32,000 bases of DNA from Parasynechococcus marenigrum WH 8102 (GCF_000195975.1 NC_005070.1:840001-872000); one strand, 5' to 3'. Positions 2,410 to 18,523 are shown, counted from the first letter of the stretch. Numbers and translations are program-made. Notes: generated by a model not told the origin, from the letters alone.

Positions 2410-2457
2410 CAGTCGGGGAGACAGGATTCGAACCTGCGGCATCTTGCTCCCAAAGCA
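2410..2457 (-). repeat. Island boundary repeat (att-like): displaced 3' portion of tRNA-Pro
   Basis: The 48 bp cagtcggggagacaggattcgaacctgcggcatcttgctcccaaagca are identical, base for base, to 18429-18476. That stretch is tRNA-Pro nt 30-74 plus 3 flanking nt. Confidence 0.9.
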
Positions 2458-2610
2458 GCCTGGCTCTTTCGTGGTGCACTGGGCTTATCCAGTCGGTGAC
2501 TCAGCTTTGCCAGCCTTTCTGCGTCATCAGGTATCAGCAAGTATCAGCAGAAGCTTGACAGTTTTCGCACGCCTTTCGCACAATTGGCATAGCAACATGC
2601 CTCTGCTGAA

Positions 2611-3783
2611 TTGCCACGAGTTTCCGAGACAGAAGCCTGGATCAAGCCCTTTAGGCGTCAGATCGCAGAGACCTGCGGTGAGAGTTGGTACGTCCGCAAC
2701 AATCGCGGTCGAATCCGTTTGGAGGTCCGTGATGCTGGGACCGTTTCACTTCCGTTCGAGTGGACTGCGCGTGGATCAGCGCTTGCCTTGCCCCGCATTC
2801 AACAGATCTTCAAGCGTTGGAACGGTGGACAGATCACCCTTGCCGCTGCAGCACAAAACGCTGACACCAGCAGCGCCCATCAGAAGCTGGATTTCAGCCA
2901 GTTGATCGAGAAATATCGGGCCTTCGTTCCTAACGCTGGCGACACCACCTGGCAGACCTTCTATCTGCCAGTCCTGCGCAACTGCGCCAAGGCATTCGAC
3001 GGCCGACCACCAGTGGACGGTGAAGCGCTGGCAATGGCTTGCCTCTCCCAGTGGGAACAGGGCTCACGGATGCGTCAGACCTCCCGTCAGAAGCTCTACG
3101 GCTTCTTGAACTGGGCGGTGCAACGTGGACACCTCAAGCCCATCTACAGCCCCCCTGCGGCGCTTCCTGAAGTGCTCAAGCCCAAGCGCATTGGCTATCC
3201 CCTCAGCGATGCGCAGATCCTGCAGCTGCTGGACAACCTCCCCGAGGGCGAGGCCCATGACCGTTGGCGATTCGCCATCCAGCTCTGTGCCGTTTACGGA
3301 TTGAGACCTGAGGAATTGCGCCATCTCCGCATCAAGGACGGGGCAAGCGGGGAAGAACTGTGGACGATTTATCAGAAATCCATGGGTGGCACCAAGGGAG
3401 CCAAGACAGAACCGCGGCGGTTGCACCCGCTGCTGCTGCGTGATGCCGATGGTTCCGCCATCGATTGGAAACTGCAGGCACGGTTGCAGGTTGGTGAACA
3501 GCTGCCGCCGTTGAACCGTGACGGTGATGGTGGCCAGGCTTTGAATCAGTACCTACGCAGACGCAAGGTCTGGATGGCGCTGCGGGGTGAAGCCGAGCAC
3601 CAGAGTGAACAGCTCACGCCCTATTCATTTAGGCACCGCTACGCAAAACAGGCTCACGCGGCACGGCTTGCCGTTGCAGAGATCAGCGAGGCCATGGGCC
3701 ACACCATCGAGGTGCATCTGAAGAGCTACGCGCGGTTCAAGCCCGATGCGACGGCTGCCAATTTCGCCGCAGTCAACGTCTGA
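2611..3783 (+). CDS. int: Tyrosine recombinase / phage-type integrase
   Basis: 390-aa ORF. It has box I GLRPEELRHL and box II TPYSFRHRYAKQA...AMGHTIEVHLKSYARF (R, H-x-x-R, H, Y catalytic set). It starts about 150 nt from the att-like repeat. The TTG start from the track is uncertain. Confidence 0.9.
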   Translation: MPRVSETEAWIKPFRRQIAETCGESWYVRNNRGRIRLEVRDAGTVSLPFEWTARGSALALPRIQQIFKRWNGGQITLAAAAQNADTSSAHQKLDFSQLIEKYRAFVPNAGDTTWQTFYLPVLRNCAKAFDGRPPVDGEALAMACLSQWEQGSRMRQTSRQKLYGFLNWAVQRGHLKPIYSPPAALPEVLKPKRIGYPLSDAQILQLLDNLPEGEAHDRWRFAIQLCAVYGLRPEELRHLRIKDGASGEELWTIYQKSMGGTKGAKTEPRRLHPLLLRDADGSAIDWKLQARLQVGEQLPPLNRDGDGGQALNQYLRRRKVWMALRGEAEHQSEQLTPYSFRHRYAKQAHAARLAVAEISEAMGHTIEVHLKSYARFKPDATAANFAAVNV

Positions 3784-3984
3784 TCACTTCTGCTCGTACA
3801 CCTTGCTTTCCAAGGCGTCTAAGCGCTTTAGAACGTCCTTCATCACCCCTTCGGTGCGGGGGGTAAGCGTTTGTTCAGACAGGGTTACCTCAAGTTTAAA
3901 ATTTATTTCAATTTGCTACCATTACAATCACTCCAATTTACTTCGGAAAAAACAAAGGATAATGATTTAGTTGATTCAAGCAAG

Positions 3985-6900
3985 ATGTCTCAATCATATT
4001 CTAGTGTGGGAAAATTAGATAGAAAAAGTTTCAAACCTTCCGGAAGTGATTATATATTATCGCCTCCGTCTTCGTATAGCAAAAGATTTGCGACCAAGTT
4101 CAAGAATTTCAATGCAAAATCGGACGTAATATCAATTGATCTTAGCGATTTTAATACGACATTGACGGGGATTTATATTGCCAGGTCAAAGAAAGAATTC
4201 AAAAAGGCACAGAAATCCGACAGTGCTTTTATCTATAATTGGAAAAATGGGAGATTATTTTTTAACGAAAATGGCAGTGCAAAAAAATACGGTGATGGTG
4301 GACTTATTGCACGTTTTGCAAAGAAGACACGTTTAAATGAAGAAAATATTATTTTCAATTTTGGCATTCATTCAACTTCAACGCCTGATCCAACACCAAC
4401 ACCAAGTTATTCAATAACAGCCGACAAGATTTCAGTCGATGAGGGAGATCGTGTTAATTGGACTATCACTACTAAAAATGTACGAAAAGGAACCAGGATA
4501 TTTGTGTCTGATGTTTTTGAAAGATCGAATAATATTTATGATAATTACAGTGATATGGATGGGTATGCTCTCGGTTCGGATGGATGGGAAAGTTACTATT
4601 TCAAGGTGAATTCAAAGGGTAAAGTTAAATTCTGGGATGAATGGAATGAGGATGGTATCACCGAGGGAGATGATTCTTATTATTATCAGTTTTACGAAGA
4701 TCCTGATTTTACAGAATTACTCGCGACATCTAAGACGGTTGAAATTATCGATACATCACAAGCACCTTCTGCAACTCCAACACCGGAACCAACTCCGGCA
4801 CCTTCTGCAACTCCAACACCAGAACCAACTCCAGAACCTTCTACAACTCCAACACCGGAACCAACTCCTGAACCCTCTACAGACCAGGGATTTCTAGATG
4901 ATTTCGCGAATAATTCATCTACCAGCGGTGTTATTTCTGTCGGGGATATTGTGAGTAGTGACTTGGAAACAACAGACGATGAAGATTGGTTCCAAATTTC
5001 TTTGACGGAAGAAAGAGTTTATCAATTTGATCTTGAGGGGATACAGTTGACTGACCCTCGAATGAGTCTGCATGGGCCTAGTTTAGAGGAATTAATTTAT
5101 GATGACGATGGAGGATCTGGATATAATTCTAAAATTGAATTTATAGCAACGTCGAGTGACAACTATTTTATTAGTGCAAAAAGTTGGGGGGAAACTGGTA
5201 CTTATACTTTGAAGGCAATAGATATCACTCCAACACCGGAACCAACTCCTGAACCCTCTACAGGCCAGGGACTTTTAGATGATTTCGCGAATAATTTATC
5301 TACCAGCGGTGTTATTTCTGTCGGGGTTATTGTGAGTGGTGACTTGGAAACAACAGACGATGAAGATTGGTTCCAAGTTTCTTTGAAGGAAGGAAGAGTT
5401 TATCAATTTGATCTTGAGGGGATACAGTTGACTGACCCTCAAATGAGTCTGCATGGGCCTAGTTCAGAGGAATTAATTTATGATGACGATGGAGGATCTG
5501 GATATAATTCTAAAATTGAATTTATAGCAACGTCGAGTGACAACTACTTTATTAGTGCAAAGAGTTGGTGGGAAACTGGTACTTATACTTTGAAGGCAAT
5601 AGATATCACTCCAACACCGGAACCAACTCCAGCACCTTCTACAACTCCAACACCAGAACCAACTCCAGAACCTTCTACAACTCCAACACCAGAACCAACT
5701 CCAGCACCTGCTACAACTCCAACACCGGAACCAACTCCAGCACCTTCCGCAACTCCAACACCGGAACCAACTCCAGCACCTTCCGCAACTCCAACACCAG
5801 AACCAACTCCAGCACCTGCTACAACTCCAACACCGGAACCAATACCAGTCCCCACACCTGAGCAGGATTCATCACCTACACCAACTGGTAATCCAACAAA
5901 TACAACCGATGGCGTCTTTTTGTATGGACCACGTCCGATGCAATCTGCTATTAAGACATTCTCAGGCACTGTTGGTGTAGGTGGGGAAGTAGATCGCTTT
6001 GAGATTTCATTTTTGGCTGGAGATGTGGTGAGCTTGTCGGTAGAAGCCGCTGACAATACCTGGCCGTTGCTGCGTCTGGTGGATGCAGAAGGACGCATTT
6101 TGGATCCAGTTAGCGCATACAACAACAATTCCGCCTCCACATCTGGTTATCGCGTTGATGTGGATGCAATGTTGTTCGCCGAGGTTTATGCCCAAAACTC
6201 ATTCACTGGCTCCTACAAACTGTATGTAGAGCGTTTTATTAATGAATCCCCACTTCGACCGATACCGAATGAACTATTAATATTGGTAGAACAGGACGCA
6301 ACGAACAGCGCAGATCAATACTCATCACGTTATCTATACTCTGATTCGGGATTGATTTACATCTCATTTGACTCGAGCCTGTCGGACGAACTTAAAAGTT
6401 GGTGGGAAGACGTATTTGCTGCGACGGATGCTGTGATTGAGCCGGAATTCGTGGTAGTTCCACAAAGTCACCCCAAATCACAGTTAGTAGTCAATCAGAC
6501 GTCATCATACTATGTTAGTGGTGATCATGCTGGGATTTATCAGTCTCCTAGTTATACCTATTCAGAGCTAAGCGATGAAAGCGCTTACAATTTTCAGAGA
6601 AAGAATAATCAAGGTGAAATTCTTCTCGCCGAAGCGGCTTTTTCTCATTCGACGCGTTTTGGTGGATCCCGAGAAGCTGGTTGGAAAAGCGTTGCGTTTC
6701 ATGAATTAGGGCATGCCCTAGGCCTAGAGCATCCTCACGACAGCTCTGATGGCGATGTTGATCGAATTATCGATACAAATGGAACAGTAATGTCCTATGA
6801 GAAAACACAGGATTCGGATGGTGATCCTGGCTTCACTGATCTGGATGTAAATGCGCTTCAGTTTGTATATGGCACAGAGACCGGTGTACTAACACCTTCG

Positions 6901-7350
6901 CCTTTAGAAGGGATTCCGCTCTTAATTGAGAGTCGCACATTTGATCTTTCAAAGCGATGGAAGTCGCCAATATTGTCAGCAGAATGGATTGGCGGTTACA
7001 CAATCCAGGAGCCCAGTTCGGGACTGTCAACCAAAGTCCTACAATTAACACGTTCGGAAGGTTATCTAGAAAACGAATCCAAAATTTGGCTGGATTTTGA
7101 TTTGGGAGACGGCCTGAAAAACTGGAATTCCCTTAATGGTTATTCCGAAGGATTTCACGATGTACTAATCCTTGGCAATTCTGTCACGTTTGAACCCGGC
7201 GAGGCCACAGCTTTGTTTGATCTTCCCATTGTTGCTGGAAGTCATGCAGAGAGCGATGAATGGGTGGATGTGACTGTGCGTCCGGAATACCCGGATCTCT
7301 ACAAAGCAGTTCCTGATTCGGCACTGCGGCTGACCATCGTCGATGCCTGA
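3985..7350 (+). CDS. Large multidomain serralysin-type (M10-like) zinc metalloprotease with PT-rich linkers, three PPC-like domains and a Calx-beta-like C-terminus
   Basis: Frame is open from 3871 and the first ATG is at 3985 (MSQSYSS). Zinc motif VAFHELGHALGLEHPHD lies at nt 6700-6735, with Met-turn TVMSY and DLDVNALQFVYG. Two near-identical domains plus one divergent domain have the pre-peptidase C-terminal pattern (DDEDWFQISL...YQFDL...GTYTLKAI). TPTPEPTPAPS linkers are present. The C-terminal VTFEPGEATALFDLPIVAGSHAESDEWVDVTV is Calx-beta-like. GC is very low. There is no N-terminal signal peptide. Confidence 0.85.
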   Translation: MSQSYSSVGKLDRKSFKPSGSDYILSPPSSYSKRFATKFKNFNAKSDVISIDLSDFNTTLTGIYIARSKKEFKKAQKSDSAFIYNWKNGRLFFNENGSAKKYGDGGLIARFAKKTRLNEENIIFNFGIHSTSTPDPTPTPSYSITADKISVDEGDRVNWTITTKNVRKGTRIFVSDVFERSNNIYDNYSDMDGYALGSDGWESYYFKVNSKGKVKFWDEWNEDGITEGDDSYYYQFYEDPDFTELLATSKTVEIIDTSQAPSATPTPEPTPAPSATPTPEPTPEPSTTPTPEPTPEPSTDQGFLDDFANNSSTSGVISVGDIVSSDLETTDDEDWFQISLTEERVYQFDLEGIQLTDPRMSLHGPSLEELIYDDDGGSGYNSKIEFIATSSDNYFISAKSWGETGTYTLKAIDITPTPEPTPEPSTGQGLLDDFANNLSTSGVISVGVIVSGDLETTDDEDWFQVSLKEGRVYQFDLEGIQLTDPQMSLHGPSSEELIYDDDGGSGYNSKIEFIATSSDNYFISAKSWWETGTYTLKAIDITPTPEPTPAPSTTPTPEPTPEPSTTPTPEPTPAPATTPTPEPTPAPSATPTPEPTPAPSATPTPEPTPAPATTPTPEPIPVPTPEQDSSPTPTGNPTNTTDGVFLYGPRPMQSAIKTFSGTVGVGGEVDRFEISFLAGDVVSLSVEAADNTWPLLRLVDAEGRILDPVSAYNNNSASTSGYRVDVDAMLFAEVYAQNSFTGSYKLYVERFINESPLRPIPNELLILVEQDATNSADQYSSRYLYSDSGLIYISFDSSLSDELKSWWEDVFAATDAVIEPEFVVVPQSHPKSQLVVNQTSSYYVSGDHAGIYQSPSYTYSELSDESAYNFQRKNNQGEILLAEAAFSHSTRFGGSREAGWKSVAFHELGHALGLEHPHDSSDGDVDRIIDTNGTVMSYEKTQDSDGDPGFTDLDVNALQFVYGTETGVLTPSPLEGIPLLIESRTFDLSKRWKSPILSAEWIGGYTIQEPSSGLSTKVLQLTRSEGYLENESKIWLDFDLGDGLKNWNSLNGYSEGFHDVLILGNSVTFEPGEATALFDLPIVAGSHAESDEWVDVTVRPEYPDLYKAVPDSALRLTIVDA
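4762..4881 (+). repeat. 36-bp tandem repeat (about 3.3 units) encoding a (A/E)PS(A/T)TPTPEPTP linker
   Basis: Units begin at 4762, 4798 and 4834 with 1-4 substitutions each. They are in frame within the protease gene. Confidence 0.85.
4861..5622 (+). repeat. 2 x 381-bp in-frame tandem duplication (PPC-like domain plus linker)
   Basis: ccaactcctgaaccctctaca recurs at 4861 and 5242, and the next unit boundary falls at 5623. By eye the two 127-codon units differ at about 15 nt. Confidence 0.9.
5608..5859 (+). repeat. 36-bp tandem repeat (7 units) encoding a TPTPEPTPAPS(A/T) linker
   Basis: Units of actccaacaccRgaaccaactccagcaccttcYRca begin at 5608, 5644, 5680, 5716, 5752, 5788 and 5824. The last unit is degenerate. 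Confidence 0.85.
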
Positions 7351-7604
7351 GCGGCACTATCTGAAGGGAATGCTTGTGTGGAGATCTTCAGAATTGCATC
7401 CTGTAAGAATCTAAGAATTACATTCTGTCTTCAATTCAATAGTGAGCCTCAATACTTACGGTACTTTGATGGCTAGGATCTCGAAATCCTGAAACAGACA
7501 TATTGAGTTCCTGTCAAGGTCATAATCATACTTGGCGTTGCAATCAAAATGGACAGGCCTGTAAATCCTCCGTACCTTCAACGTCGAACGCAAATTCCTT
7601 TGCT

Positions 7605-8834
7605 ATGACTGAACTCTCGCCCCTGGTCTCAACCACCACGGGCTTTCTGGTGTTGTTCGTGGGCAAACGCTTGAACCGCGAACTTAAGGCATTGCGAAAC
7701 TTTTCGATTCCAGAACCTGTATCGCGAGGACTTCTCGTAGCCGTCCTTTTGACACTGATACACGTATTGGGTGGGCCCGAACTCAATTTTAACCTGGATT
7801 CTCGGGACTTCCTTCTGGTTTATTTCTTCACCACGGTGGGGATGAATGCCCGTTTCAGTGATTTAAGGCGCGGCGGCCCGGCACTGTTCATTCTTCTGGG
7901 CCTGACCATCGGCTACATGACGTTGCAGAACATCATTGGCGTCACGATGGCGGGTTTGCTGGGGCTTCATCCCGCCACGGGATTGCTCGTTGGCACGGTG
8001 TCACTGATTGGTGGACACGGCACAACGATTGCCTGGGCTCCCACATTTACAGAGAACTTCCAGATTGACAGCGCCCTTGAAATCGGTATTACTGCTGCCA
8101 CCTTTGGACTTGTTCTTGCCAGTGCCAGCGGCGGCCCAATTGCCCAGTTCCTATTACGTCGTTTTAAGATTCCCTGCCCAAGTACAACGCCAGAAGATCA
8201 AACCCTGAAGCACCCAGTCAATGACGTGCAAGATCATGTATCTGGAAAAAGGAATATCGACATGACCTCCTTCCTGGCAGCGCTCTTGGCCATCAATATC
8301 TGCATCATCTCCGGCATGGTGCTGAACGGTGGCATCGCGGCTATCGGCCTGAAGCTGCCTTTGTTTGTGCCCTGTCTGCTGGTCGGCATTCTCTATTCGA
8401 ATCTGCTCCCAGAGAGACGTTCTGAGCGGGCCGTCTTCCATTGGCCAAAACAGTCCACTTCGCTGGATTTAATCAGCGAACTTTCATTGGGAATCTTCTT
8501 AGCCATGTCCCTAATGAGCTTGCAACTTTGGACCTTGGTCGGCCTTGCCTTGCCTTTGCTGGCCATCCTCCTGACCCAGTTCATCATTGCTCTGGCCATC
8601 AATCTGCTGCTCGTATTCCGACTGATGGGAAGGTCGTATGACGCAGCTGTCATCTGCGCAGGCTTTGGTGGGATCGCTCTGGGTTCCACACCAACGGCCA
8701 TGGCAAACATGACCGCCGTTACGCAGCAGTATGGAGCCTCGACGCGAGCGTTTCTAATTGTTCCCTTGGTGTCCGCTTTTTTCCTCGATCTCGTCAATGC
8801 AATTCTGATACCTGGTTTTATTGGGCAGCTCTAG
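7605..8834 (+). CDS. gltS: Sodium/glutamate symporter (GltS family)
   Basis: About 410-aa polytopic membrane protein. FFTTVGMNARFSDLRRGGPALFILLGLT...LQNIIGV...GSVSLIGGHGT-like VGTVSLIGGHGTTIAWAP...ATFGLVLASASGGPIAQFLL matches my memory of E. coli GltS. The track ORF starts at 7503, but the ATG at 7605 (MTELSPLV) removes a non-membrane leader. Confidence 0.8.
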   Translation: MTELSPLVSTTTGFLVLFVGKRLNRELKALRNFSIPEPVSRGLLVAVLLTLIHVLGGPELNFNLDSRDFLLVYFFTTVGMNARFSDLRRGGPALFILLGLTIGYMTLQNIIGVTMAGLLGLHPATGLLVGTVSLIGGHGTTIAWAPTFTENFQIDSALEIGITAATFGLVLASASGGPIAQFLLRRFKIPCPSTTPEDQTLKHPVNDVQDHVSGKRNIDMTSFLAALLAINICIISGMVLNGGIAAIGLKLPLFVPCLLVGILYSNLLPERRSERAVFHWPKQSTSLDLISELSLGIFLAMSLMSLQLWTLVGLALPLLAILLTQFIIALAINLLLVFRLMGRSYDAAVICAGFGGIALGSTPTAMANMTAVTQQYGASTRAFLIVPLVSAFFLDLVNAILIPGFIGQL

Positions 8835-8966
8835 GAAGACAATCATTAATTCCCAATGTAAACCCACGGTGACGTCACGGCAAAGCAAAGGCTAGTGATT
8901 GTAGTTAGTTTCTATAATTTACAAATATCTGGCAAGCAATGCCTCTGTAAATACAGGGGCTTCACA

Positions 8967-9515
8967 CTATCTAAAATGTCCTTTGGGCCAAATTGAAATT
9001 CTCAACATCGGCCCATCACTGGTTATTGGATCATCACCAGCTGGAATCAAACTTGTGGACCAGTCGTAGATGTCTTCATCAGGGTTGAAACTGTGGAAGA
9101 CGACATTGGCTTGCTTCCCTGGTTCAATCGCTGGATTGAAGCGAATACTTAGCTTGTCGCCGCTTTCCGACAAAATAGTCTGTACGAGCCCAGGCTCGCC
9201 GCGACGTCGTAGGCCATATTGACCGAAATACATCTCGGGTTCGCTTCGACCCCAATCCCAGTGATGGTTATTGGTGAGCTGTGAAAGAATCAAGAATTCC
9301 AGTTCCGCCCCAGCATCCTCTGGGACACGAATACTGATGGTGGTTCGGTTGCGGAGTCCTTCGGTTTTCTCAGGATTGTGAATGCTGACTTCCGTCGGTG
9401 CTTTCGTGAAAACGGTTTGTCCAGAAGCTAGGTCGCTGCTCAGCAGAAGAGCGAAACCACTCAGCAGATGAAGGGTGAATCTGATCAAAGGATGTTTTGT
9501 CGGTGATGAGGTCAC
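8967..9515 (-). CDS. Exported protein, DUF2808-like (182 aa)
   Basis: Has a signal-like N-terminus (LLSGFALLLSSDLASGQ). The layout TVFTKAP...ISIRVPEDAGAELEFLILSQ...RRRGEPG...LSIRFNPAIEPGK...IPAGDDP...LRISI resembles the cyanobacterial DUF2808 family as I recall it, not database-checked. Its ATG overlaps the upstream stop (ATGA at 9515-9512). Confidence 0.6.
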   Translation of the reverse strand: MTSSPTKHPLIRFTLHLLSGFALLLSSDLASGQTVFTKAPTEVSIHNPEKTEGLRNRTTISIRVPEDAGAELEFLILSQLTNNHHWDWGRSEPEMYFGQYGLRRRGEPGLVQTILSESGDKLSIRFNPAIEPGKQANVVFHSFNPDEDIYDWSTSLIPAGDDPITSDGPMLRISIWPKGHFR

Positions 9516-9757
9516 TGCTGCTCTGTTCGGTATGGGCTCTCTTGATCGTTGATGACCTTGATGGAGCAGGTCACACCACCATCGGAATTTCCTTGACTGT
9601 CGTGGCTGCCATCACAGTCGACAAGCTCTAAGCGGGTTCCAGGTCCAACTTCCACTCGTCCCTTCTTCCGGAAGAACACCTCACCATCACGAGCAAGGCC
9701 TGGCGCAGCAAATGAAACAAGCGCCAGAGCAGTGAATAGTGCTTTCAATCCAAACAA
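9512..9757 (-). CDS. Small secreted protein (81 aa, 2 Cys)
   Basis: TTG start. Signal peptide MFGLKALFTALALVSFAAPGLA. The stop overlaps the start of the downstream gene. Confidence 0.5.
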   Translation of the reverse strand: MFGLKALFTALALVSFAAPGLARDGEVFFRKKGRVEVGPGTRLELVDCDGSHDSQGNSDGGVTCSIKVINDQESPYRTEQQ

Positions 9758-9766
9758 AGTCGTTGA

Positions 9767-10018
9767 TCAGAGGATACCGAGAGGACCTTTCTTCTTCTTG
9801 CAATAGCCCATGCCGATGTTCATCCACCCCGATTGACAGGCCTCACCGTTGGTAGGAGCCACCTCGTAGTAAATGGGGGAAACGCAAGTAGTGCCAAAGG
9901 TGTTGACGTATCCCAGTGGGCACTCGTCATGACCTTCAGCCTTGGGGATTTCCTTCTGGGCTAGAGCAGGCGTAGCAGAAGCCAATACCAGGGAGGCTGT
10001 GAGCAGAGCTTTGAGCAT
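9767..10018 (-). CDS. Small secreted cysteine-rich protein (83 aa, 4 Cys in the mature part, C-terminal KKKKGPLGIL)
   Basis: Signal peptide MLKALLTASLVLASATPALAQ. Its ATG (10018-10016) overlaps the TGA of the upstream 53-aa ORF (TGATG). Confidence 0.6.
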   Translation of the reverse strand: MLKALLTASLVLASATPALAQKEIPKAEGHDECPLGYVNTFGTTCVSPIYYEVAPTNGEACQSGWMNIGMGYCKKKKGPLGIL

Positions 10019-10179
10019 CAGAAAAGGAAGTAAGCCAGAAGGAAGCCAATGATCAGGCCTTTGACCCAGACGAGGGCAGCCATCCCATATTCAGTCAGAC
10101 CGAGCTTCTTCCTGATCCAAAGGAAGGCCTGCTCATCAGCGAAGAGAACAGCTCGGATAGGGCGAACAATCCAGTCCAT
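10018..10179 (-). CDS. Unannotated 53-aa tail-anchored membrane protein
   Basis: Below the ORF-track size cutoff. My translation is MDWIVRPIRAVLFADEQAFLWIRKKLGLTEYGMAALVWVKGLIIGFLLAYFLF. Both its start (10179-10177) and its stop (10020-10018) sit in TGATG overlaps with the neighbouring genes. Confidence 0.55.
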   Translation of the reverse strand: MDWIVRPIRAVLFADEQAFLWIRKKLGLTEYGMAALVWVKGLIIGFLLAYFLF

Positions 10180-10430
10180 CACTGCCCAACCAGTTGCAGG
10201 TATTTCGCCACGTCACCACCGTTGCAGTAGTGGACAGCGACTGGGCGCTCAATGAATCCACCCTTGCCCTCTACATCGGTGAACTCGACGCCAGCCAGGT
10301 TGATGATCCCCGTCTCAGCGTTCTTGACGCAGTTCACAAACTCCTTTGATTGCTTAGCCACCGGGAGTAGGAGGACCAGCCCAGCAAGAACAGCAGCTCC
10401 GACCAGACCCTTCTCAACGTTGGGATTCAT
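10179..10430 (-). CDS. Small membrane-anchored or exported protein (83 aa, 2 Cys)
   Basis: ATG start. Hydrophobic N-terminal segment GLVGAAVLAGLVLLLPVA. It is the first gene of a tightly overlapped minus-strand gene string. Confidence 0.55.
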   Translation of the reverse strand: MNPNVEKGLVGAAVLAGLVLLLPVAKQSKEFVNCVKNAETGIINLAGVEFTDVEGKGGFIERPVAVHYCNGGDVAKYLQLVGQ

Positions 10431-10809
10431 TCGGTGTGGATTGTTACCAGACAGGTTTTAGGCGTGAGCCTGACTCTTGTCCACGTGAACGGGGTCAAAT
10501 CCAGCAAAACAGAACTATCACTCACCATTGAGGGCGGATAAACACCACATCAACAGAGCACCTGATTCACCGGTACCAGCTCCACTCCTTACGAAAGACG
10601 CCTTTACCAACTGGATATTCCAACAGTTGGCCGTTGAGTAGTGGACAACTACGCAGAAGCGACGAAGCTATGAGTACATGCAAGTTCAAGGCAGCCGATC
10701 TAGGTCACCGATCCACTGCCACCAGCCAAAGAGAAGAAGCGTCGAGGCAGCCATCAGCGCAAGCCTGAAAAGAACGGGTTCTGCAAACCACAACTGAGGA
10801 TCAACAACC

Positions 10810-11433
10810 ATGGAAACCAAGACACGAAAAGCAGCCACAGCTCACAAGATCATCGAGGCAGGAGAAGGTGTTCTGAATCTGGTCTGGGGCAAAGCCGATG
10901 AAAGGAGAGCAGCTTCGCTTGAGATCATTGCTCGCACTGCTTACACAGCAGAGGAGAGTGCCTGCCACTACCTAGAGACCATTGGTCTCGATAAAGAAGG
11001 CACGATCAGGGACACATTGGAACTGGCTCGTTACCAGGACACCAATGAGCAGACCCACGAGGACATTTTCGCCAGGGATCTAGATGGATTGAAGAACTGG
11101 GGTGACCGCTTCTTAGCCAGACACATCGCCGTGGTCATCTATTGGGTGTTCGCCATCACAACCCTTATTGACCATGAGATGGCTGCCTTGCTGGGTGAGG
11201 CCGTTGAGGTCGAGGCAGTCAAGACGTACAGGCGGATGCTGAAGGAGCAACCAGAGGAGTGGCTAGACCAGCCAGCAGCACCAACCGCAACTCACTACTG
11301 GGAGAAGCCCAACAGCATGTGGCGAGTAAGAGGTGACCATATGCCTGGCTCTATGCGTGACGTAGTGGAAGCGATCGTTAGAGACGAAGCAGACCACGTC
11401 AAAGCCAATAGCAAGAAAGCAACAGCTTTTTAA
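10810..11433 (+). CDS. ptox: Plastoquinol terminal oxidase (PTOX, alternative-oxidase family di-iron protein)
   Basis: All four AOX/PTOX iron-ligand motifs occur in order: LEIIARTAY, NEQTHE (E-x-x-H), EVEAVKTY and RDEADH (E-x-x-H). The length of 207 aa is in the range of cyanobacterial and cyanophage PTOX. Confidence 0.85.
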   Translation: METKTRKAATAHKIIEAGEGVLNLVWGKADERRAASLEIIARTAYTAEESACHYLETIGLDKEGTIRDTLELARYQDTNEQTHEDIFARDLDGLKNWGDRFLARHIAVVIYWVFAITTLIDHEMAALLGEAVEVEAVKTYRRMLKEQPEEWLDQPAAPTATHYWEKPNSMWRVRGDHMPGSMRDVVEAIVRDEADHVKANSKKATAF

Positions 11434-11490
11434 TCGGAGACTGAAATGCTTGCGATTGATTACCTGGTGTAATCCGTTGTTGCGCCACTG

Positions 11491-11644
11491 CCCGATGAGA
11501 TCGACCTACAGCACTGCGAGGAGTGCAGTATCAGTGGGTTTGCGGGTCTCCCTGACGGTGGGTTGACCGTTAGGTCGGCTGAGGCGTAACAGCGGGGAAT
11601 ATCTCAGGCAGTCACGTCTGACCAATGCCTCAAGACACCTGCAT
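11491..11644 (+). repeat. Copy A of a conserved GC-rich non-coding element (about 154 nt)
   Basis: Aligns block-wise with 13473-13639. Shared blocks are CCCGATGAGAT, CAGCACTGCGAGGAG, CCCTGACGGTG, CGTTAGGTC, GCAGCGGGGAA and an identical GGCAGTCACGTCTGACCAATGCCTCAA. Contains the hairpin CCTGACGG-8nt-CCGTTAGG. Confidence 0.7.
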
Positions 11645-11843
11645 CTCCCTGTTCCTACTGGCTGAACTGTTTGCAGCACTGCAAGCCAATGCCTCTGACC
11701 TGTTCAAGCGGTGGCTGTATGGGGGTATCCAAGACCTAGGTGAAGCTGCCGTGACGGAGCTACTGCTGGATTGGATTGACCCGTTCATCACCCGAGTCGA
11801 GAGGGACAGGATTGTGACGTGGCACCTGGGAGTGAGCCTCTAA
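11625..11843 (+). CDS. Hypothetical protein (72 aa), possibly the 5' part of a frameshifted gene
   Basis: Its ATG lies inside the conserved end of repeat copy A. The next frame is open from 11836 and overlaps this stop. Confidence 0.35.
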   Translation: MPQDTCISLFLLAELFAALQANASDLFKRWLYGGIQDLGEAAVTELLLDWIDPFITRVERDRIVTWHLGVSL

Positions 11844-11874
11844 CCAGAACGGCATCAAGCCCAGCATCAGGACA

Positions 11875-12652: not shown

Positions 12653-12744
12653 TCCTGGCGTCATAGGGAATGCCAGCATCTTCGGGATGCGCCTCAGCCC
12701 ACCGGCAACGTATGCCTCCCAGCAATCGCCCACGTCGCCGACGA

Positions 12745-12963: not shown

Positions 12964-13140
12964 TCTTCTCTCCTGATCGGACGAAGAACATAAGCCGCAG
13001 GGAACCAGAGACTCGCTAAAGATTATTATTTCGCAAATAAGTATTTATTTTCTGTTCATATTCTACTCAAGAAGTTCTGTGAAGATATCTATTGAATGAC
13101 GCTTTTTTGCGCAAGCTACCAGAAAAGGGAGGAATGCCCC

Positions 13141-13374
13141 ATGAAATTGTTTGCATATTCCGTCTCGGTCCTTTTGATATCAGCAGCACCTGCGCACTCT
13201 TCCAGCGACAAGCAAGTCTTCCTGTCAATGAAGAAGTTTGAGCAGTTGGCTGACAGGGCACATGCCTTTTGCGCGAGCGTTGACCTTGAGTTCTCTCAAA
13301 AGTTCTATGACTGCATGGACCAGAAGATGCATGGAATTTATATCGACAGCAGCACGGTTAGATCACGTAATTAA
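13141..13374 (+). CDS. Small secreted protein (77 aa)
   Basis: The ATG at 13141 is preceded by AAAAGGGAGGAA (a Shine-Dalgarno-like site). Signal peptide MKLFAYSVSVLLISAAPAHS. Low GC, like the adjacent protease cassette. Confidence 0.6.
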   Translation: MKLFAYSVSVLLISAAPAHSSSDKQVFLSMKKFEQLADRAHAFCASVDLEFSQKFYDCMDQKMHGIYIDSSTVRSRN

Positions 13375-13472
13375 TATGAATACGGGTCCTTCCTGTGTAG
13401 TACAGCGTAGGTCAATTCGGACCTCCTTCATCATTTAGTGCCCGATAAGTTTGGCCTAAATGGGGCCATCAA

Positions 13473-13639
13473 CCCGATGAGATTGCCCGGCAGCACTGCG
13501 AGGAGATGCATCAGCGATGGGTGGTGTGTGACTGCCCTGACGGTGTGCTGGGGAGGCTTTGGTGGTGGGTTAGTCGTTAGGTCTGCAGCGGGGAACACTT
13601 CTGGCAGTCACGTCTGACCAATGCCTCAAAATACCGCAT
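13473..13639 (+). repeat. Copy B of the conserved GC-rich non-coding element (about 167 nt)
   Basis: Has the same blocks as copy A. The hairpin is kept as CCTGACGG-~30nt-TCGTTAGG (C to U gives G.U). It is GC-rich yet embedded in low-GC DNA on both sides, and it ends about 97 nt upstream of the second metzincin ATG. Confidence 0.7.
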
Positions 13640-13735
13640 TGTAATGTTCCTTTAGGAGGGGTAATATCAAGAAATAGTGACATTAATTGACTCAGCGCAA
13701 GTCAATTCTAATATTGTATATATCGCAAATTATCA

Positions 13736-15001
13736 ATGAAACCGATTGAGGCAATTGAGCTAATTATGTCTCAAGCCCATATTGACGACATGAAGACTAT
13801 TGTCGGCAGCGACTTAATCTTAGACATATACATATCACCAGGAGGAGAACCTCACATAGCGTGGGATGATAGAGCGCAAGAGGACGTGGAAACTATAACT
13901 AAAAAGCCGGCCGAATGGCAATATAAAGTAATGCGTGAAGCCATGGAGAGAGTCAACAGGGAATTTGATATTACCATTGACGAGGTTGAATATGAACAGC
14001 TTTCAGACACACAAATAAAGCTAACGACCGTTCCTAATTCGGATGCCGTGAATGGTGAATGGATAAGAAGTTGGGATAACAGCGGGGTTGCGGATATTTA
14101 TCTATCGATGACATATCAGAGTGGCCTGGAGGGTAGTAAATATCCAGATGCCCATGAAAATCCTGACAAATATACTCATGACGAATGGGAAAAATCCGAG
14201 TGGAAAAAGATTTTTATTCATGAACTTGGCCATTTGCTTGGCCTCGAACATCCTTGGGACAAAGATGATGGAGACTGGGCAGTTGATGGTCCAGACGTAG
14301 AAACAGAGAAAACGATCATGGGATATGAAAGTAGGGATGCCAGCGGCAAAGTAATGGACTGGTTCCAGGATGTAGATCAGCGCGCTTTGAAACAAATATG
14401 GGGTGCATCAACAGCTAATCCCGAACCAACTCCTGAACCGGTTCCAACCCCTACTCCAGAACCAACGCCTGCAACTGTTCTTACACCCACGCCAGAACCA
14501 CCGCCAACGCCATCTCTAGAACTACCACCATCGCCATTATCACCACCAATTGATGGTGACTTCTCATCTCTACCACCCGACTTATGGCTGTCGCAAACTC
14601 ACGACGTCATCATTCAATCAGTTCGTGGTAAGGGTAAATTAAAGGGTAAGAAAGGTGCAGATGCCTTCTATTTTAATTCCTTTGAGGCATTTACTAAAAA
14701 GTCTGCTGACAAGATCATTGGATTTAAAGCATCGCAAGACACAATTGCCGTAAGTCCCGATGCGTTTCCTGCATTGGAAGGTGTCTCCGCTATCAGGTTT
14801 GCATCGACCAAGAGCAAAAATGAATTAAAGCAATTATCCAAGGAGGATTACGATTTTGTCTATTTTGAGAAAAAAGGTCGGCTCTACTTCGATGGAAATG
14901 GCGCAGAGAAGAACTGGGGAAACAGTGATGAAGGAGGTCTTGTGGCAATCCTGAAAGGAAAGCCTGAGCTAACTGTTGAAGACATCACACTGCTTGCTTG
15001 A
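13736..15001 (+). CDS. Serralysin-type (M10-like) zinc metalloprotease with a PT-rich linker and a C-terminal post-RTX-like module
   Basis: Zinc motif IFIHELGHLLGLEHPWD at nt 14219-14254, Met-turn TIMGY and QDVDQRALKQIWG. The linker is NPEPTPEPVPTPTPEPTPA. The C-terminus is GKKGADAFYF...DKIIGF...DTIAV...FVYFEKKGRLYFDGNG...GGLVAILKG...LTVEDITLL. Low GC and no signal peptide. Confidence 0.85.
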   Translation: MKPIEAIELIMSQAHIDDMKTIVGSDLILDIYISPGGEPHIAWDDRAQEDVETITKKPAEWQYKVMREAMERVNREFDITIDEVEYEQLSDTQIKLTTVPNSDAVNGEWIRSWDNSGVADIYLSMTYQSGLEGSKYPDAHENPDKYTHDEWEKSEWKKIFIHELGHLLGLEHPWDKDDGDWAVDGPDVETEKTIMGYESRDASGKVMDWFQDVDQRALKQIWGASTANPEPTPEPVPTPTPEPTPATVLTPTPEPPPTPSLELPPSPLSPPIDGDFSSLPPDLWLSQTHDVIIQSVRGKGKLKGKKGADAFYFNSFEAFTKKSADKIIGFKASQDTIAVSPDAFPALEGVSAIRFASTKSKNELKQLSKEDYDFVYFEKKGRLYFDGNGAEKNWGNSDEGGLVAILKGKPELTVEDITLLA

Positions 15002-15025
15002 TAAAGCTTCAACTGCAAACCCATA

Positions 15026-15051
15026 GCCCCGTTAGCAATGGCGGGGTTTTT
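15026..15051 (+). terminator. Rho-independent terminator
   Basis: CCCCG-ttagcaatgg-CGGGG followed by TTTTT, 25 nt after the protease stop. It lies between convergent genes. Confidence 0.6.
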
Positions 15052-15060
15052 GATGGGTAC

Positions 15061-15411
15061 CTAGCTGCCCTCCAGCAATCTGGTTGGCTGTGCCTGGAGC
15101 TTGAGGGCACCAACGGCGTTGCTGTGTTGCTTGCAGCGGATACTGGCTTCGATAATTTCGTCTAGCAGGGCAAGACGCGTTCTGAGGAAGTCAGAGCGTT
15201 CAACGCTGTAGTCAGCCCGGATGATCTCTCTTGCTTTGGCGAGATAGCGCTCAGCGGTTCTGCGATCAACCCCCCATTCGTCCGATGCGTATTGACAGAC
15301 GTAGCTAGTTGTCTTTGCCGACGACAGAAGTTTGACGACGGTATGAATCCGCCGATCAATTTCTGCTTTGTCTGACTTCTTCGCCATTGACTCATTCTGC
15401 CATGAAGTCAC
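15061..15411 (-). CDS. HTH-like island protein (116 aa), regulator or small-terminase-like
   Basis: YASDEWGVDRRTAERYLAKAREIIRADY resembles the HTH N-termini of phage regulators and small terminases. MAKKSDK at 15387 is an alternative start. The function is not established. Confidence 0.55.
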   Translation of the reverse strand: MTSWQNESMAKKSDKAEIDRRIHTVVKLLSSAKTTSYVCQYASDEWGVDRRTAERYLAKAREIIRADYSVERSDFLRTRLALLDEIIEASIRCKQHSNAVGALKLQAQPTRLLEGS

Positions 15412-15572
15412 TAAACGGCACGATTTACCTCAATTGGATGGGTTTTTCTGTCGCTCGCGCGTATTTCATAAAGCTCCAAAACTCAGTAGTGTTTCAGAGA
15501 GAGACGTGGAGAGAGAGTTGTTAGAGAGAAGGATTAGGGAGAATGGAGGTTTTGGAACATTCAGCCTGTTTT

Positions 15573-15607
15573 GACATGTCGAAACTGCATTAGACATTCC
15601 GAAACTG
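15573..15607. promoter_or_regulatory. Iteron-like direct repeats (candidate origin or operator)
   Basis: GACATGTCGAAACTG (15573-15587) and GACATTCCGAAACTG (15593-15607) have 20-nt periodicity. A GAGAGAGA-rich tract lies just upstream (about 15493-15545). The repeats sit in the 320-nt gap next to the ATPase gene. Confidence 0.4.
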
Positions 15608-15731
15608 GTTTGGGAACTCGGTGAGTGGGACAAAGGCTCCGATACTGAATCCAGTGCAGGACTGAGGTTTTTGCCGATTTAGCGAATGTTTTGGATTTTG
15701 GATCCCCCCACGCTAAGAATTGCAAAACGGG

Positions 15732-16988
15732 TCAGAACATCCAGAGCCATGGCGGGCGACCACCTCCCGCTGTTGATTGCCCCTTCACGCGTTGGATCTG
15801 CAGTGCGTTGCCGCTTGAGTAGTAATCACGAAGCTCCTTGGCGACGGTCTTCTCGTGAGCACCAATGCCCGCTGCAATCGTCTCTACGGCCTGCGGCTGC
15901 CCTTTCCGCTGTCGTAGGTATTCGAGCGTCTTGGCGATGACTGAGCACCGTTCTGATGGGGTCTCTCCACCGCCTTGAACACCAACAAAGGTGAGGGAGA
16001 AATCATCTGTGGATCCCTGGAGGTCCCAAGTGGTTCCCGCCTCGCAATTCCGCTTGCCGAGGCAGCGCAGCATGAACTGATAGGGGAAGGCATCTTCTGC
16101 TTTGTTGGCCCAGTAGCCAAAGACGTCAGAGCAGGCAGCGGTGAGCATCCCGGTGCCAAGAAAATCGTCTAGCCCTACCGCTGTGCGTCCTTTGGCGGTG
16201 TCGGCTTTGCGGAGGTGAATCAGCAGAAAGATGACAACCCCAAGTTCAGCGGCCAGGTGGTTCAGCTGATAAAGGAACAGGGCGTATTCCGGATCGGTTG
16301 ATTTAATGCCGCGACCACCAGCAACGGTGGTGATCGAGTCAATGCCGATGAGCTTGGCTCCGGTCTTCTGGATCTTGCGCTTCAGTTCAGGAACCATGGC
16401 GGGGTTAAAGCCCCACATCCAATGAATGGGCAGATCAGCGTCAGCGCCCATTGCCAGGAATTTCTTTTTGGCGTTGAGGTCTGATTCATCGCATTGCACG
16501 ATGATTGCGGGACCACGTTGAACGGTGAGTTCATTGAAGAGCGGGGCACCAGATGCAACTGCGATAGCGGCTTGATACATGAGGGTTGTCTTTCCCTCGC
16601 CCTTATCTCCATCAATGCAGACCAGGGCACCTTTGGCACCGAATTGATCAATGCCCCATGTGGCGTCGTGTTGACGCTCCATGAGTTCAGCAAGCGTGCA
16701 ATCTTGGTCGTTGCGTTGCTCATCGATGAGCGTTGCAACGGCTTGATCGAAGGCCTTGCCGTTGGTGAGCCCTGTTTGCTCTCTGAGGTTCTGGAGGGCA
16801 ATGAACCGCTCAGTGGGGGATTCGATGTCTTCGAGCACCTCCAGGCCGAGCTTCAGGGTGTCGAGGGCAACAGCACCTGTGATGACTTCCAGCAGTGCAG
16901 CCTTCTGCTGTTCACGATTGGCGTGCCCGTTTTTGCTGGGCAGTTCAAACACGTCTGCAAGTTGTGGTGGGTCAGAGACGAAAGTCAT
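15732..16988 (-). CDS. RecA/RepA-like AAA ATPase (AAA_25-type, putative replicative helicase) with a C-terminal winged-helix-like domain
   Basis: Walker A is IDGDKGEGKTTL and Walker B is AKLIGIDSITTV. Also present are IVQCDES and VVIFLLIHLRK, as in RepA/DnaB-like island proteins. The C-terminal end is LEYLRQRKGQPQAVETIAAGIG...TVAKELR. Confidence 0.8.
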   Translation of the reverse strand: MTFVSDPPQLADVFELPSKNGHANREQQKAALLEVITGAVALDTLKLGLEVLEDIESPTERFIALQNLREQTGLTNGKAFDQAVATLIDEQRNDQDCTLAELMERQHDATWGIDQFGAKGALVCIDGDKGEGKTTLMYQAAIAVASGAPLFNELTVQRGPAIIVQCDESDLNAKKKFLAMGADADLPIHWMWGFNPAMVPELKRKIQKTGAKLIGIDSITTVAGGRGIKSTDPEYALFLYQLNHLAAELGVVIFLLIHLRKADTAKGRTAVGLDDFLGTGMLTAACSDVFGYWANKAEDAFPYQFMLRCLGKRNCEAGTTWDLQGSTDDFSLTFVGVQGGGETPSERCSVIAKTLEYLRQRKGQPQAVETIAAGIGAHEKTVAKELRDYYSSGNALQIQRVKGQSTAGGGRPPWLWMF

Positions 16989-17606
16989 TTAGAGCCCCTC
17001 CGCCATTGCACGAGCTGCCACGGAGCAAGGGTTACCAAGTTCGTTTTGTTTGAACTGGCGGGCGTCTTCTGCCATGTGTGCAACGGCCTTGAGGTTGTTT
17101 TCAACGCGCAGGCGGTGGAGTTGCTTTAGGTCTGGGTGTTCATGCCAAATGGCTGGTAGGTGCGTTGCCAGGGCTGCTGCTTTGGCTTGCGCATCATCAA
17201 TGGCGGCAAATGAGTATTTGAGTTGGTCTGGGGTGGCCGAATAGAAGTCAGGGACGTTCCATGCGGCGTCAAACGCGGCGAAAAATTGGTCAAGAACGTC
17301 TGACCACTGCCTGCGCTTTTGTTGAATTGCCAGCAGTTGCTCGGGGCTGTTTGGTGTGGGCCGTCGAAGGTCCCATTTCCATTCCTCCCGGTTGCGATCA
17401 CTGTGCGGCTTGAAGACGGCTGCCATGCCGCTGAACCCACCTTTGTGATGGATGAATGCCCATTTCTGACCGGCGATGGTGAGGGTGTTGCCTGGTCGTA
17501 GATCGGTGCCTGTATGGCAAAGGATCGTGTCGTCATTCCATCGACAGTCGGTATCCTTCGTCCTGCCACAAACGGGGCAGGGATTGTTTCTTCCCGAGGA
17601 ACGCAT
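16989..17606 (-). CDS. Zinc-ribbon protein (primase-type Zn finger), replication-module partner
   Basis: N-terminal CPVCGRTKDTDCRWNDDTILCH (CxxC...C...C/H). Its stop directly abuts the start of the ATPase gene with no intergenic base. No recognisable primase catalytic motif. Confidence 0.65.
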   Translation of the reverse strand: MRSSGRNNPCPVCGRTKDTDCRWNDDTILCHTGTDLRPGNTLTIAGQKWAFIHHKGGFSGMAAVFKPHSDRNREEWKWDLRRPTPNSPEQLLAIQQKRRQWSDVLDQFFAAFDAAWNVPDFYSATPDQLKYSFAAIDDAQAKAAALATHLPAIWHEHPDLKQLHRLRVENNLKAVAHMAEDARQFKQNELGNPCSVAARAMAEGL

Positions 17607-17609
17607 GAC

Positions 17610-17915
17610 TCATTCCCCCTCTTTTTTAAGGTGGTCTTCGTCGCCATAGGTTTCGATCAGTCCTAGGCGTTTCTCCAGATCAGCTTTCCGGCGAGAGCCC
17701 TTTTCTTGCACTGCAGCGATGGTTCGCTCGGCAAGTGTTTTTCTGATGGCGTCGATGTCATAGACCACAGGGCCACCAGGGGTGCCAGTGACAAAGATGT
17801 AATGATCGCCAGGCGTCAGCCTGCCGTCACGACGCATTGATCTGAGGGTGTTGTGCTTGATCGCCAGGAGCTTTGCAGCCTCTGGCTCATGCACCCACTG
17901 CGGGGTGGAATCCAT
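17610..17915 (-). CDS. xis: Excisionase / AlpA-like HTH DNA-binding protein
   Basis: EAAKLLAIKHNTLRSMRRDGRLTPGDHYIF matches the excisionase-family HTH pattern. It is 101 aa and only 3 nt upstream of the next gene. Confidence 0.7.
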   Translation of the reverse strand: MDSTPQWVHEPEAAKLLAIKHNTLRSMRRDGRLTPGDHYIFVTGTPGGPVVYDIDAIRKTLAERTIAAVQEKGSRRKADLEKRLGLIETYGDEDHLKKEGE

Positions 17916-17924
17916 CGATAGGGG

Positions 17925-18212
17925 TCAGTTAGATCCCTTCGCCTTGGCTGCTACTTCGTCGAGCAACGCAACTGCTTCCTTTGAATAGAGCAGCACACCC
18001 AATGGGGTGCAGTCTTCCTCCAACGCTTGATCCTGAAGATTCTGCGGAATACGGATAGTTACTCCGTTCCACCGAATGGTTGTTCTGGATACCTGGTGAT
18101 GGCGAGCAGGGCGAGGCAAGTTCTGAGCTTCCAGTGAAGGGGGGAACAGAACCGCCTGTCGGGCAACGCCTAAAACGGCGTCCGCGTCACCTCCAACGCG
18201 CCGACGCCACAT
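17925..18212 (-). CDS. Hypothetical island protein (95 aa)
   Basis: First ORF of the right-end operon, 9 nt from the next gene. NGVTIRIPQNLQDQ is faintly AbrB/SpoVT-like. Confidence 0.4.
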   Translation of the reverse strand: MWRRRVGGDADAVLGVARQAVLFPPSLEAQNLPRPARHHQVSRTTIRWNGVTIRIPQNLQDQALEEDCTPLGVLLYSKEAVALLDEVAAKAKGSN

Positions 18213-18368
18213 GGGGTGATGTCAGGTAGGGACCAGGGAAACCCTGGCAGGAGAACGGCAAGGCAGAACCCTGTGCGCTCATCTCTCGGTGAATCCATGC
18301 TGATACGCAGGCGTAATCGCGTCAACAGGTGTGAGCAGGTGTCGGGGAAAGTCGTGCGAAAGGCCAAT

Positions 18369-18394
18369 AAAAAACCCGATGCTTTCGCACCGGG
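18369..18394 (-). terminator. Rho-independent terminator supplied by the island for the reconstituted tRNA-Pro
   Basis: Minus strand reads CCCGGTGC-gaaa-GCATCGGG (one G.U) followed by TTTTTT. It starts 37 nt downstream of the tRNA 3' end. Confidence 0.65.
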
Positions 18395-18431
18395 TTCGCG
18401 CAAGCGGTTTGGGGAATCGCTGAGATGTCAG

Positions 18432-18505
18432 TCGGGGAGACAGGATTCGAACCTGCGGCATCTTGCTCCCAAAGCAAGCGCGCTACCAAACTGCGCCACT
18501 CCCCG
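18432..18505 (-). tRNA. tRNA-Pro: tRNA-Pro (anticodon UGG)
   Basis: A 74-nt cloverleaf folded by hand: CGGGGAG-UG-GCGC-AGUUUGGUA-GCGC-G-CUUGC-UUUGGGA-GCAAG-AUGCC-GCAGG-UUCGAAU-CCUGU-CUCCCCG-A. CCA is not encoded. Confidence 0.93.
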
Positions 18506-18523
18506 GACGCTCAAGACTAGCGT

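Follow-up and report, generated by a model that had tools for sequence, protein, structure and literature searches.

We interpret a 16-kb block of DNA in the marine Synechococcus Parasynechococcus marenigrum (Synechococcus sp.) WH 8102 as a site-specific integrative element of the tycheposon type, inserted at a tRNA-Pro(UGG) gene and carrying the genes SYNW0880 to approximately SYNW0893. To this reading, taken together with the mechanism of integration, replication and transfer proposed below, we assign a probability of about 0.72. The element was analysed within a stretch of 32,000 nt (the window), and positions are counted from the first nucleotide of that stretch. As cited in PMC3744912, 14 regions of anomalous GC content were listed for WH8102 in 2003, ten of them beside putative phage integrases; because the region was thus already flagged, the island as such is not new. 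Tycheposons are also a known type of element, and what is new is a well-preserved one in a model strain. A literature search found no paper that names these element genes.

The edges of the element are set by a direct repeat. A repeat finder returned 51 nt (2407-2457 versus 18426-18476) with one mismatch, of which 48 nt form a perfect core. This core, which cannot have arisen by chance within 32 kb, runs from nt 30 of the tRNA-Pro, in the anticodon stem, to nt 74, that is, to the 3′ end, plus 3 nt. The tRNA gene stays intact, its 3′ part being supplied by, or identical to, element-borne sequence. Between the two identical core copies lies a 16-kb block of lower GC content, with genes at 0.42-0.60 and a minimum of 0.38 in 1-kb sliding windows, against 0.61-0.63 in the flanks. 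No further degenerate att copies were found inside the element, which is therefore a single bounded unit. A tyrosine integrase occupies the end distal to the tRNA, and a minus-strand operon of four genes, separated by gaps of 9, 3 and 0 nt, occupies the tRNA end. The first-pass annotation, made from the sequence alone, had claimed a perfect 48-bp repeat corresponding to the 3′ part of tRNA-Pro, a composition unlike both flanks, an integrase at one end with a packed operon at the other, and intact repeats and integrase reading frame; ARAGORN, the repeat finder and our own gene coordinates recovered every one of these features in place, with the integrase at full length and its catalytic residues present. 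An Rfam scan of the window found nothing beyond the tRNA-Pro and a tRNA-Lys (20253-20324 by ARAGORN, in agreement with Rfam).

Comparison with relatives shows the same site without the insertion. Four complete genomes were retrieved by means of the flanking proteins (CP047956.1, WH8103, RS9915 and A18-46.1). The site is empty in CP047956.1, where the oxidoreductase and 131-aa genes and the tRNA-Pro directly adjoin the 83-aa and deacetylase-family genes. An attB reconstituted from the window (2390-2457 joined to 18477-18500) is present in this genome with zero mismatches, and its empty-site sequence consists exactly of the left flank, the 48-bp core and the 5′ half of the tRNA. By blastn, window positions 1-2457 match CP047956.1 at 99.2% and positions 18426-27975 at 96.2%, the two matches overlapping in the repeat only. 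This inequality of the flanks hints at homologous recombination with a breakpoint in or close to the tRNA-Pro hotspot. The island of A18-46.1 (CP047955.1) is rearranged. It retains the partial tRNA copy, a more divergent integrase remnant of ~310 nt, with 68% amino-acid identity across 97 residues, and, on the tRNA side, the ATPase; the integrase remnant is followed by VapE-like/DUF5906, small serine resolvase, cNMP-binding acetyltransferase-like and methyltransferase genes. Such a layout points to one insertion after another, and to rearrangement, at this hotspot.

In an alignment of 18 homologues, integrase residues R232, K256/K265, R341, H364 and Y373 are invariant. The family has more than 500 members across marine Synechococcus (among them CC9605, where it occurs twice, CC9902, A15-62, UW69, MIT S1220 and MIT S9509), and the protein of Prochlorococcus MIT1227 is 74% identical to that of WH8102; KORDI-49 has an integrase with at least 90% identity. 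In MIT1227 and CC9605, as in WH8102, the integrase gene is preceded at ~150 nt by a partial tRNA-Pro copy, and such a copy accompanies the integrase at each of the three related loci examined (MIT1227, CC9605 and L039). The last of these, L039 (IMG/VR UViG_3300020421_000124, 9830-11167), encodes a 40%-identical integrase on a temperate-phage-like contig of 40% GC with Erf, SSB, RusA, exonuclease and minor tail genes. Here a 48-nt 3′ segment of tRNA-Pro(UGG) lies directly upstream of the integrase, with phage genes on both sides, and is an attP for tRNA-Pro in what seems to be a free, temperate-phage-like genome. Profile searches of the PDB gave no significant match to the WH8102 integrase, and tblastn searches of cultured phages with the integrase and the Zn-ribbon protein of the operon gave no match.

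Each core copy is bordered within the element by an arm that carries short repeated motifs. The left arm has two copies of GTATCAGCA (2531, 2541), TTGACA (2555-2560), two copies of [T/C]TTTCGCAC (2562, 2573) and CACAAT (2579-2584), and the right arm has GTATCAGCA on the minus strand (18298-18306) and CTTTCGCAC on both strands (18354-18362, minus; 18382-18390, plus). Exact GTATCAGCA occurs in the 32 kb solely at 2531, 2541 and 18298, and exact CTTTCGCAC solely at 2573, 18354 and 18382 (2562 has a copy with one mismatch), so that all exact copies of the arm motifs lie within ~180 nt of the core, on both arms. The block TTGACAG[C/T]TTTCGCACGCCTTTCGCACAAT is kept upstream of the MIT1227 integrase; TTCGCAC repeats recur in the corresponding arm of the Synechococcus locus L040 (CP138940.1) and in that of L039, where they appear as GTGCGAA repeats. 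From this distribution we infer that the motifs are arm-type integrase binding sites that overlap the integrase promoter. Just downstream of the tRNA-Pro 3′ end, the element supplies a minus-strand intrinsic terminator (18397->18372), which stands in for the host terminator present after tRNA-Pro at the empty site and should both keep tRNA expression intact and insulate the element operon. In Logan assemblies, contigs break at the repeat; we rejected site heterogeneity as the explanation, because any 48-bp repeat breaks a k=31 graph.

The operon at the tRNA end has counterparts at the same position elsewhere. In L040, the xis, Zn-ribbon and ATPase genes lie directly after tRNA-Pro, with identities of 56%, 59% and 79%. 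L040 and CC9605 have Xis-like homologues (56-58% identity) in the corresponding position, that of L040 matching DUF1233 weakly, and a stretch 82% identical to the 95-aa ORF adjoins an att copy in CC9605. Because the ATPase, SYNW0891, matches RadA/Sms, the T7 gp4 helicase domain and Twinkle in profile searches of the PDB, we assign it to the RecA-fold, SF4-like helicases. Its PHROG matches are to DnaB-like and primase-helicase families, and some of its close homologues are fusions of 660-724 aa with an extra N-terminal region. The Zn-ribbon protein is matched weakly by PF08273 (Zn_Ribbon_Prim), and its ribbon domain is found at the N terminus of VapE-like, D5_N/DUF5906, DUF3987+Toprim_2 and AAA_25 proteins; this fusion to primase and helicase proteins elsewhere ties the domain to replication initiation. 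The ribbon domain (16989-17200, N-terminal ~70 aa) is a widespread module, with 239 representative-level homologues and four helicase/primase families. For the protein as a whole, the AlphaFold model is of low confidence, and neither Foldseek nor a PDB profile search returned a significant match; given the weak model and the lack of a Foldseek match, a primase-adaptor fold for the 205-aa protein is not claimed. Downstream of the ATPase, a 344-bp gap that separates it from the next gene contains three of the four exact copies of TCCAAAAC in the window, together with a 20-nt repeat in tandem that includes a palindrome, and with a CT tract. This architecture is kept downstream of the ATPase in L040, and we regard the repeat-rich region as a candidate replication origin.

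Beyond the candidate origin stands a separate gene, described at first as HTH or small-terminase-like, which proves to be homologous to a gene directly upstream of the terminase large subunit in Prochlorococcus siphoviruses. Its longer reading spans 15061-15411, and the real start is probably M9, which gives a protein of 108 aa. By tblastn against INPHARED, this protein matches only the Prochlorococcus siphoviruses P-HS2, MED4-184 and MED4-117, at 26.5% identity, and hhalign to the P-HS2 gene gives a probability of 97.8% (E 1e-12, 97 of 107 columns). In P-HS2 and MED4-117, the homologue overlaps the start of the terminase large subunit by 4 nt, and portal and head morphogenesis genes come next; judged by these neighbours, the phage gene sits at the standard small-terminase position. 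The 108-aa family yielded 353 hits, and a 33%-identical copy adjoins the integrase in MIT1227. The protein matches no Pfam TerS family and has no significant hit in a PDB profile search. As a side observation, a metagenome contig (ENA ERZ27250978 k141_7240, 2104-10327) carries an 83%-identical 108-aa gene beside a 1417-aa fusion of D5_N, DUF5906, PolA exonuclease and PolA polymerase domains, and also a 28%-identical integrase; here the small gene accompanies another kind of replication module.

The first-pass annotation had also named findings that would speak against a mobile unit at this site, and the outcome was the reverse in each case. The empty tRNA-Pro site is present and intact in a related picocyanobacterial genome, the edges of the repeat coincide exactly with those of the insertion, and the backbone genes are not ordinary chromosomal paralogues, since they recur at tRNA-Pro in other picocyanobacteria.

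We propose the following mechanism. The tyrosine integrase would recombine a ~310-bp attP, consisting of the core and arms with TTCGCAC-type and GTATCAGCA motifs, with the chromosomal attB, and the Xis-like HTH protein would direct excision. The excised circle could then replicate from the repeat-rich region beside the helicase gene, with the Zn-ribbon protein and the SF4-like helicase driving replication together with the host primase and polymerase. Finally, through the 108-aa small-terminase-like protein, the element could be packaged into the capsids of an infecting siphovirus, which would carry its cargo from cell to cell, including the plastoquinol terminal oxidase (PTOX), the symporter GltS and secreted metalloprotease-like proteins. 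The searches returned no circular junction, so that mobility at present and transfer with the help of phages are matters that we infer. Current mobility of the WH8102 element is nevertheless plausible, given its intact genes, its perfect repeat, the conserved arm sites and the exact empty site in a relative; among the relatives compared, only WH8102 combines a full set of full-length backbone genes with a perfect repeat.

Several observations weigh against an element that is active in this way, and some of them favor the alternative that survives best, namely a fixed relic. Under that alternative, the region descends from an old element of phage origin, either a defective prophage or a capsid-encoding satellite, whose structural genes have been lost while int, xis, rep and a TerS-like remnant were retained; it would now pass vertically like any other genomic island, and the empty site of CP047956.1 would be either ancestral or the product of one old excision. 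The element is shared with WH8103 and RS9915, whose copies are 97.8-98.9% identical to that of WH8102; the flanks have diverged to the same degree, so that vertical inheritance suffices within this clade. The sister copies are decaying: the integrase is shortened to 331 aa in RS9915, the Zn-ribbon protein is shortened to 145 aa in WH8103 and truncated also in A18-46.1, and the distal att copy has 1-2 mismatches in WH8103 and RS9915; the ATPase is frameshifted in L040. Relatives in CC9605, with an 86%-identical integrase, still have terminase-large-subunit-like genes, which suggests a fuller ancestor. The attP junction was not found in viral or metagenome contigs by a junction-pattern search (one TARA contig ends inside the repeat), and the element was not found in IMG/VR by scans with the single integrase, the single ATPase, the ATPase alignment or the 108-aa alignment, the integrase alignment leading to L039 only. 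By contrast, the WH8102 backbone genes are all full length beside a perfect repeat, the arm motifs and the origin-like intergenic region are conserved across lineages, and the 108-aa protein keeps at least 78% identity across hundreds of metagenome variants (the top 120 hits), which indicates purifying selection. On balance we consider the relic explanation rather improbable.

Three further points count against parts of the proposed mechanism. First, no primase or polymerase catalytic domain was detected in the element. Second, the integrase is followed directly by cargo, with no divergent regulator pair of the Stl/Str kind found there in phage-inducible chromosomal islands (PICIs). Third, the TerS assignment is positional in the phages, at 26-28% identity to a phage gene that is itself unannotated, and the model of the 108-aa fold is weak (pLDDT 64, with an HTH-like N terminus), fold searches including Foldseek giving no significant match, so that a TerS fold is not claimed. 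With phage homology and gene position on one side and the weak model and missing fold match on the other, we treat the small-terminase role as a well-founded lead.

Two other explanations fare far worse. An ordinary replacement island, brought in by homologous recombination of the flanks, with an incidental repeat and a 'backbone' of host paralogues, would fit the hint of recombination near the site in the unequal flank identities to the empty-site genome; however, the insertion ends exactly at the 48-bp repeat, other genera also have an integrase with an att copy ~150 nt upstream, recurrence of the backbone genes is confined to such islands, and the exact attB of CP047956.1 in effect refutes this explanation, which we hold to be highly improbable. 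Equally improbable is an integrative conjugative or mobilizable element, which would account for an integrase together with an AAA_25 ATPase of a family also found on plasmids and was rejected for want of transfer genes, no relaxase, coupling protein or type IV secretion genes appearing in Pfam, PHROG and NCBIfam scans of the larger ORFs.

Within the integrative-element reading, the TerS-like gene raises the most interesting question, whether the element is a cargo-carrying satellite. Such an element would excise on infection by a Synechococcus siphovirus of the P-HS2 packaging type, replicate from its own origin and be packaged by the helper terminase via its 108-aa TerS homologue, an outcome that we think possible and on present evidence doubtful. 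There would be several implications. First, PTOX, GltS and protease genes would be moved between cells. Second, a packaging gene would stand together with large metabolic cargo, a combination that the tycheposon paper reported as not observed. Finally, the 108-aa family could be a general packaging handle of picocyanobacterial islands. WH8102 is a genetically tractable model marine Synechococcus. Since the att sites of its element are defined, and candidates for the arm sites and the origin are available alongside a TerS-like gene, the strain allows direct tests of excision, of replication and of transfer with the help of phages, tests that are harder in Prochlorococcus.

Table 1. Features of the tRNA-Pro element in the WH8102 window, ordered by position.
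Feature	Position	Strand	Basis or remark
Distal att copy, 48-nt partial tRNA-Pro 3′ segment	2410-2457		Left flank runs on into the empty-site sequence of CP047956.1
Left arm of predicted attP and integrase promoter region	2458-2610	+	9-mer positions; putative function
Tyrosine integrase SYNW0880 (CAE07395.1), facing inward	2611-3783	+	PF00589 1.6e-7; phrog_1 1.6e-23
1159-aa low-GC, repeat-rich protein	3871-7350	+	PPC domain; weak Zn-metalloprotease match
GltS sodium/glutamate symporter	7503-8834	+	PF03616 2e-110; TIGR00210 417 bits, above cutoff
DUF2808 protein and four small ORFs	8967-10430	minus	Pfam, ORF inspection
Plastoquinol terminal oxidase PTOX, CAE07402.1 (SYNW0887 by numbering)	10810-11433	+	PF01786 8.6e-13; phrog_4235 1.6e-14
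421-aa metzincin-like protein	13736-15001	+	HELGHLLGLEH; Pro/Thr-rich linker
108-aa small-terminase-like HTH protein CAE07405.1 (SYNW0890)	15061-15387	minus	phrog_34910 2.6e-10
Candidate replication origin (or pac/operator region), GC 0.46	15388-15731		Repeats; putative function
AAA_25 / RecA-fold SF4-like helicase SYNW0891, 418 aa	15732-16988	minus	PF13481 2.9e-19
Zn-ribbon protein CAE07407.1, 205 aa	16989-17606	minus	N-terminal CxxC...C...C ribbon and C-terminal helical bundle
Xis-like/regulator HTH protein, 101 aa	17610-17915	minus	HTH_17 3.9e-4; phrog_66 'excisionase and transcriptional regulator' 8e-4
95-aa ORF, first operon gene	17925-18212	minus	Called as gene in metagenome annotations
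Right arm of predicted attP	18213-18428		Motif positions
Proximal att copy, within intact tRNA-Pro	18429-18476		Repeat comparison
tRNA-Pro(UGG), integration target	18431-18505	minus	ARAGORN; Rfam gives 18432-18505

The cargo lies between the integrase and the 108-aa gene. PTOX, whose gene is named 'alternative oxidase' in the source record, provides an alternative electron sink that is regarded as important for photosynthesis in iron-poor oligotrophic waters. Our analysis places it on a potentially mobile element, whose mobility, if true, would provide a way to account for the patchy distribution of PTOX among Synechococcus strains. Both metalloprotease-like proteins carry Pro/Thr-rich tandem repeats. 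The counterpart of the 1159-aa ORF has 987 aa in WH8103 and 1201 aa in RS9915; within this ORF (4718-5902) lie 36-nt (Pro/Thr/Glu-rich) and 381-nt tandem repeats, the copy number of which differs from that in an otherwise 99.96-100% identical metagenome scaffold, and a related 36-nt repeat is present in the second metalloprotease-like gene (14391-14525). Three of the four small ORFs beside the DUF2808 gene have hydrophobic N termini that, judged by eye, resemble signal peptides. A ~170-nt sequence occurs twice in the cargo, 2 kb apart (11488-11645 and 13470-13640), with blocks of 33-50 nt at 88% identity and one copy ~100 nt upstream of the 421-aa metalloprotease gene; it has no Rfam match and no significant RNA structure, and the A18-46.1 island has a 90%-identical counterpart of a 290-nt stretch (11552-11839) that overlaps the first copy. 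A reading of the region as a defence island was rejected, PADLOC giving no hits, and the scans of the larger ORFs gave no hits for capsid, tail, lysis or conjugation genes.

The published definition of the tycheposons of Prochlorococcus combines a site-specific integrase of their own lineage and a common set of hallmark genes with a layout in which the integrase points inward and a replication module may stand at either end, together with cargo; tRNA-Pro(tgg) is one of their seven targets (Hackl et al., bioRxiv 10.1101/2020.12.28.424599). The WH8102 element has this target, partial tRNA repeats at both ends, an inward tyrosine recombinase at one end and a 3.3-kb replication module (15061-18212) at the other. 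The tycheposon hallmark table lists HTH_17/DUF1233-type xis and regulator genes and SF4 DnaB/RecA-type helicases (bioRxiv 10.1101/2020.12.28.424599), and the WH8102 element has an xis/HTH_17-type regulator and an SF4 DnaB/RecA-like helicase, a likeness by functional class. It resembles tycheposons also in its ecologically relevant cargo, represented here by PTOX, GltS and the secreted metalloprotease-like proteins, and in being patchy and decaying among close strains. Because organisation, target and cargo agree in this way, as the first-pass annotation had anticipated in describing a layout of integrase, replication module and cargo at a partial tRNA repeat, we assign the element to the tycheposons, an already-known kind. 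Its place within the tycheposon integrase clade and hallmark profiles is supported indirectly, through homology to the integrase that MIT1227, a member of the Hackl genome set, carries beside its partial tRNA-Pro. There are also differences. The host belongs to Synechococcus clade III, the integrase is distal whereas that of Prochlorococcus tycheposons is mostly tRNA-proximal, and a TerS-like gene is accompanied by ~11 kb of cargo, whereas PICI-like tycheposons were reported without extra cargo (bioRxiv 10.1101/2020.12.28.424599).

Two other kinds of island in marine Synechococcus have parallels with the element. Tycheposon-like insertions that lie upstream of the phycobilisome rod region, at tRNA-Phe(GAA) (Grebert et al. 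2022, PMC8995045), likewise have a distal tyrosine recombinase beside a tRNA remnant and strain-variable content, whereas their tRNA target and integrase differ and neither a replication module nor a TerS-like gene is described there. A 70-kb island with a 'relic prophage', running from tRNA-Pro to tRNA-Arg in Synechococcus WH8016 (Flores-Uribe et al., bioRxiv 10.1101/325100), is similarly integrase-bearing, phage-related and bounded by tRNA-Pro; compared by description, it is far larger, with a split DNA polymerase and a different gene set.

More broadly, the element shares many features with PICIs, including the SaPIs, and with other phage satellites. At ~16 kb it falls in their 10-20-kb class, and it has an integrase, att repeats, an Xis-like gene, a helicase-type replication gene with an adjacent repeat-rich candidate origin and a small-terminase-like gene. 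Like them, it lacks genes for capsid, tail and lysis, and no terminase large subunit accompanies the small-terminase-like gene. By contrast with these satellites, it shares no sequence homology with PICI hallmark families, its TerS role is putative, it has no identified helper phage or capsid-remodelling genes, and its metabolic and secreted cargo is large. A side observation in CC9605 (CP000110.1, 1-21173) adds another form. Here two elements of this integrase family seem to be arranged in tandem, with a partial tRNA-Pro copy (9801-9848) between them; the integrase of one directly adjoins the 95-aa and xis-like genes of its neighbour. Both have a terminase-large-subunit-like gene, of 524 aa in one and 476 aa in the other (87.5% identical), with large unannotated ORFs after it, and they could be capsid-encoding satellites or defective prophages. 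One integrase-attP module spans three kinds of element, a temperate-phage-like contig, the terminase-bearing elements of CC9605 and the cargo island of WH8102, and this sharing illustrates the continuum of phages, satellites and genomic islands in picocyanobacteria.

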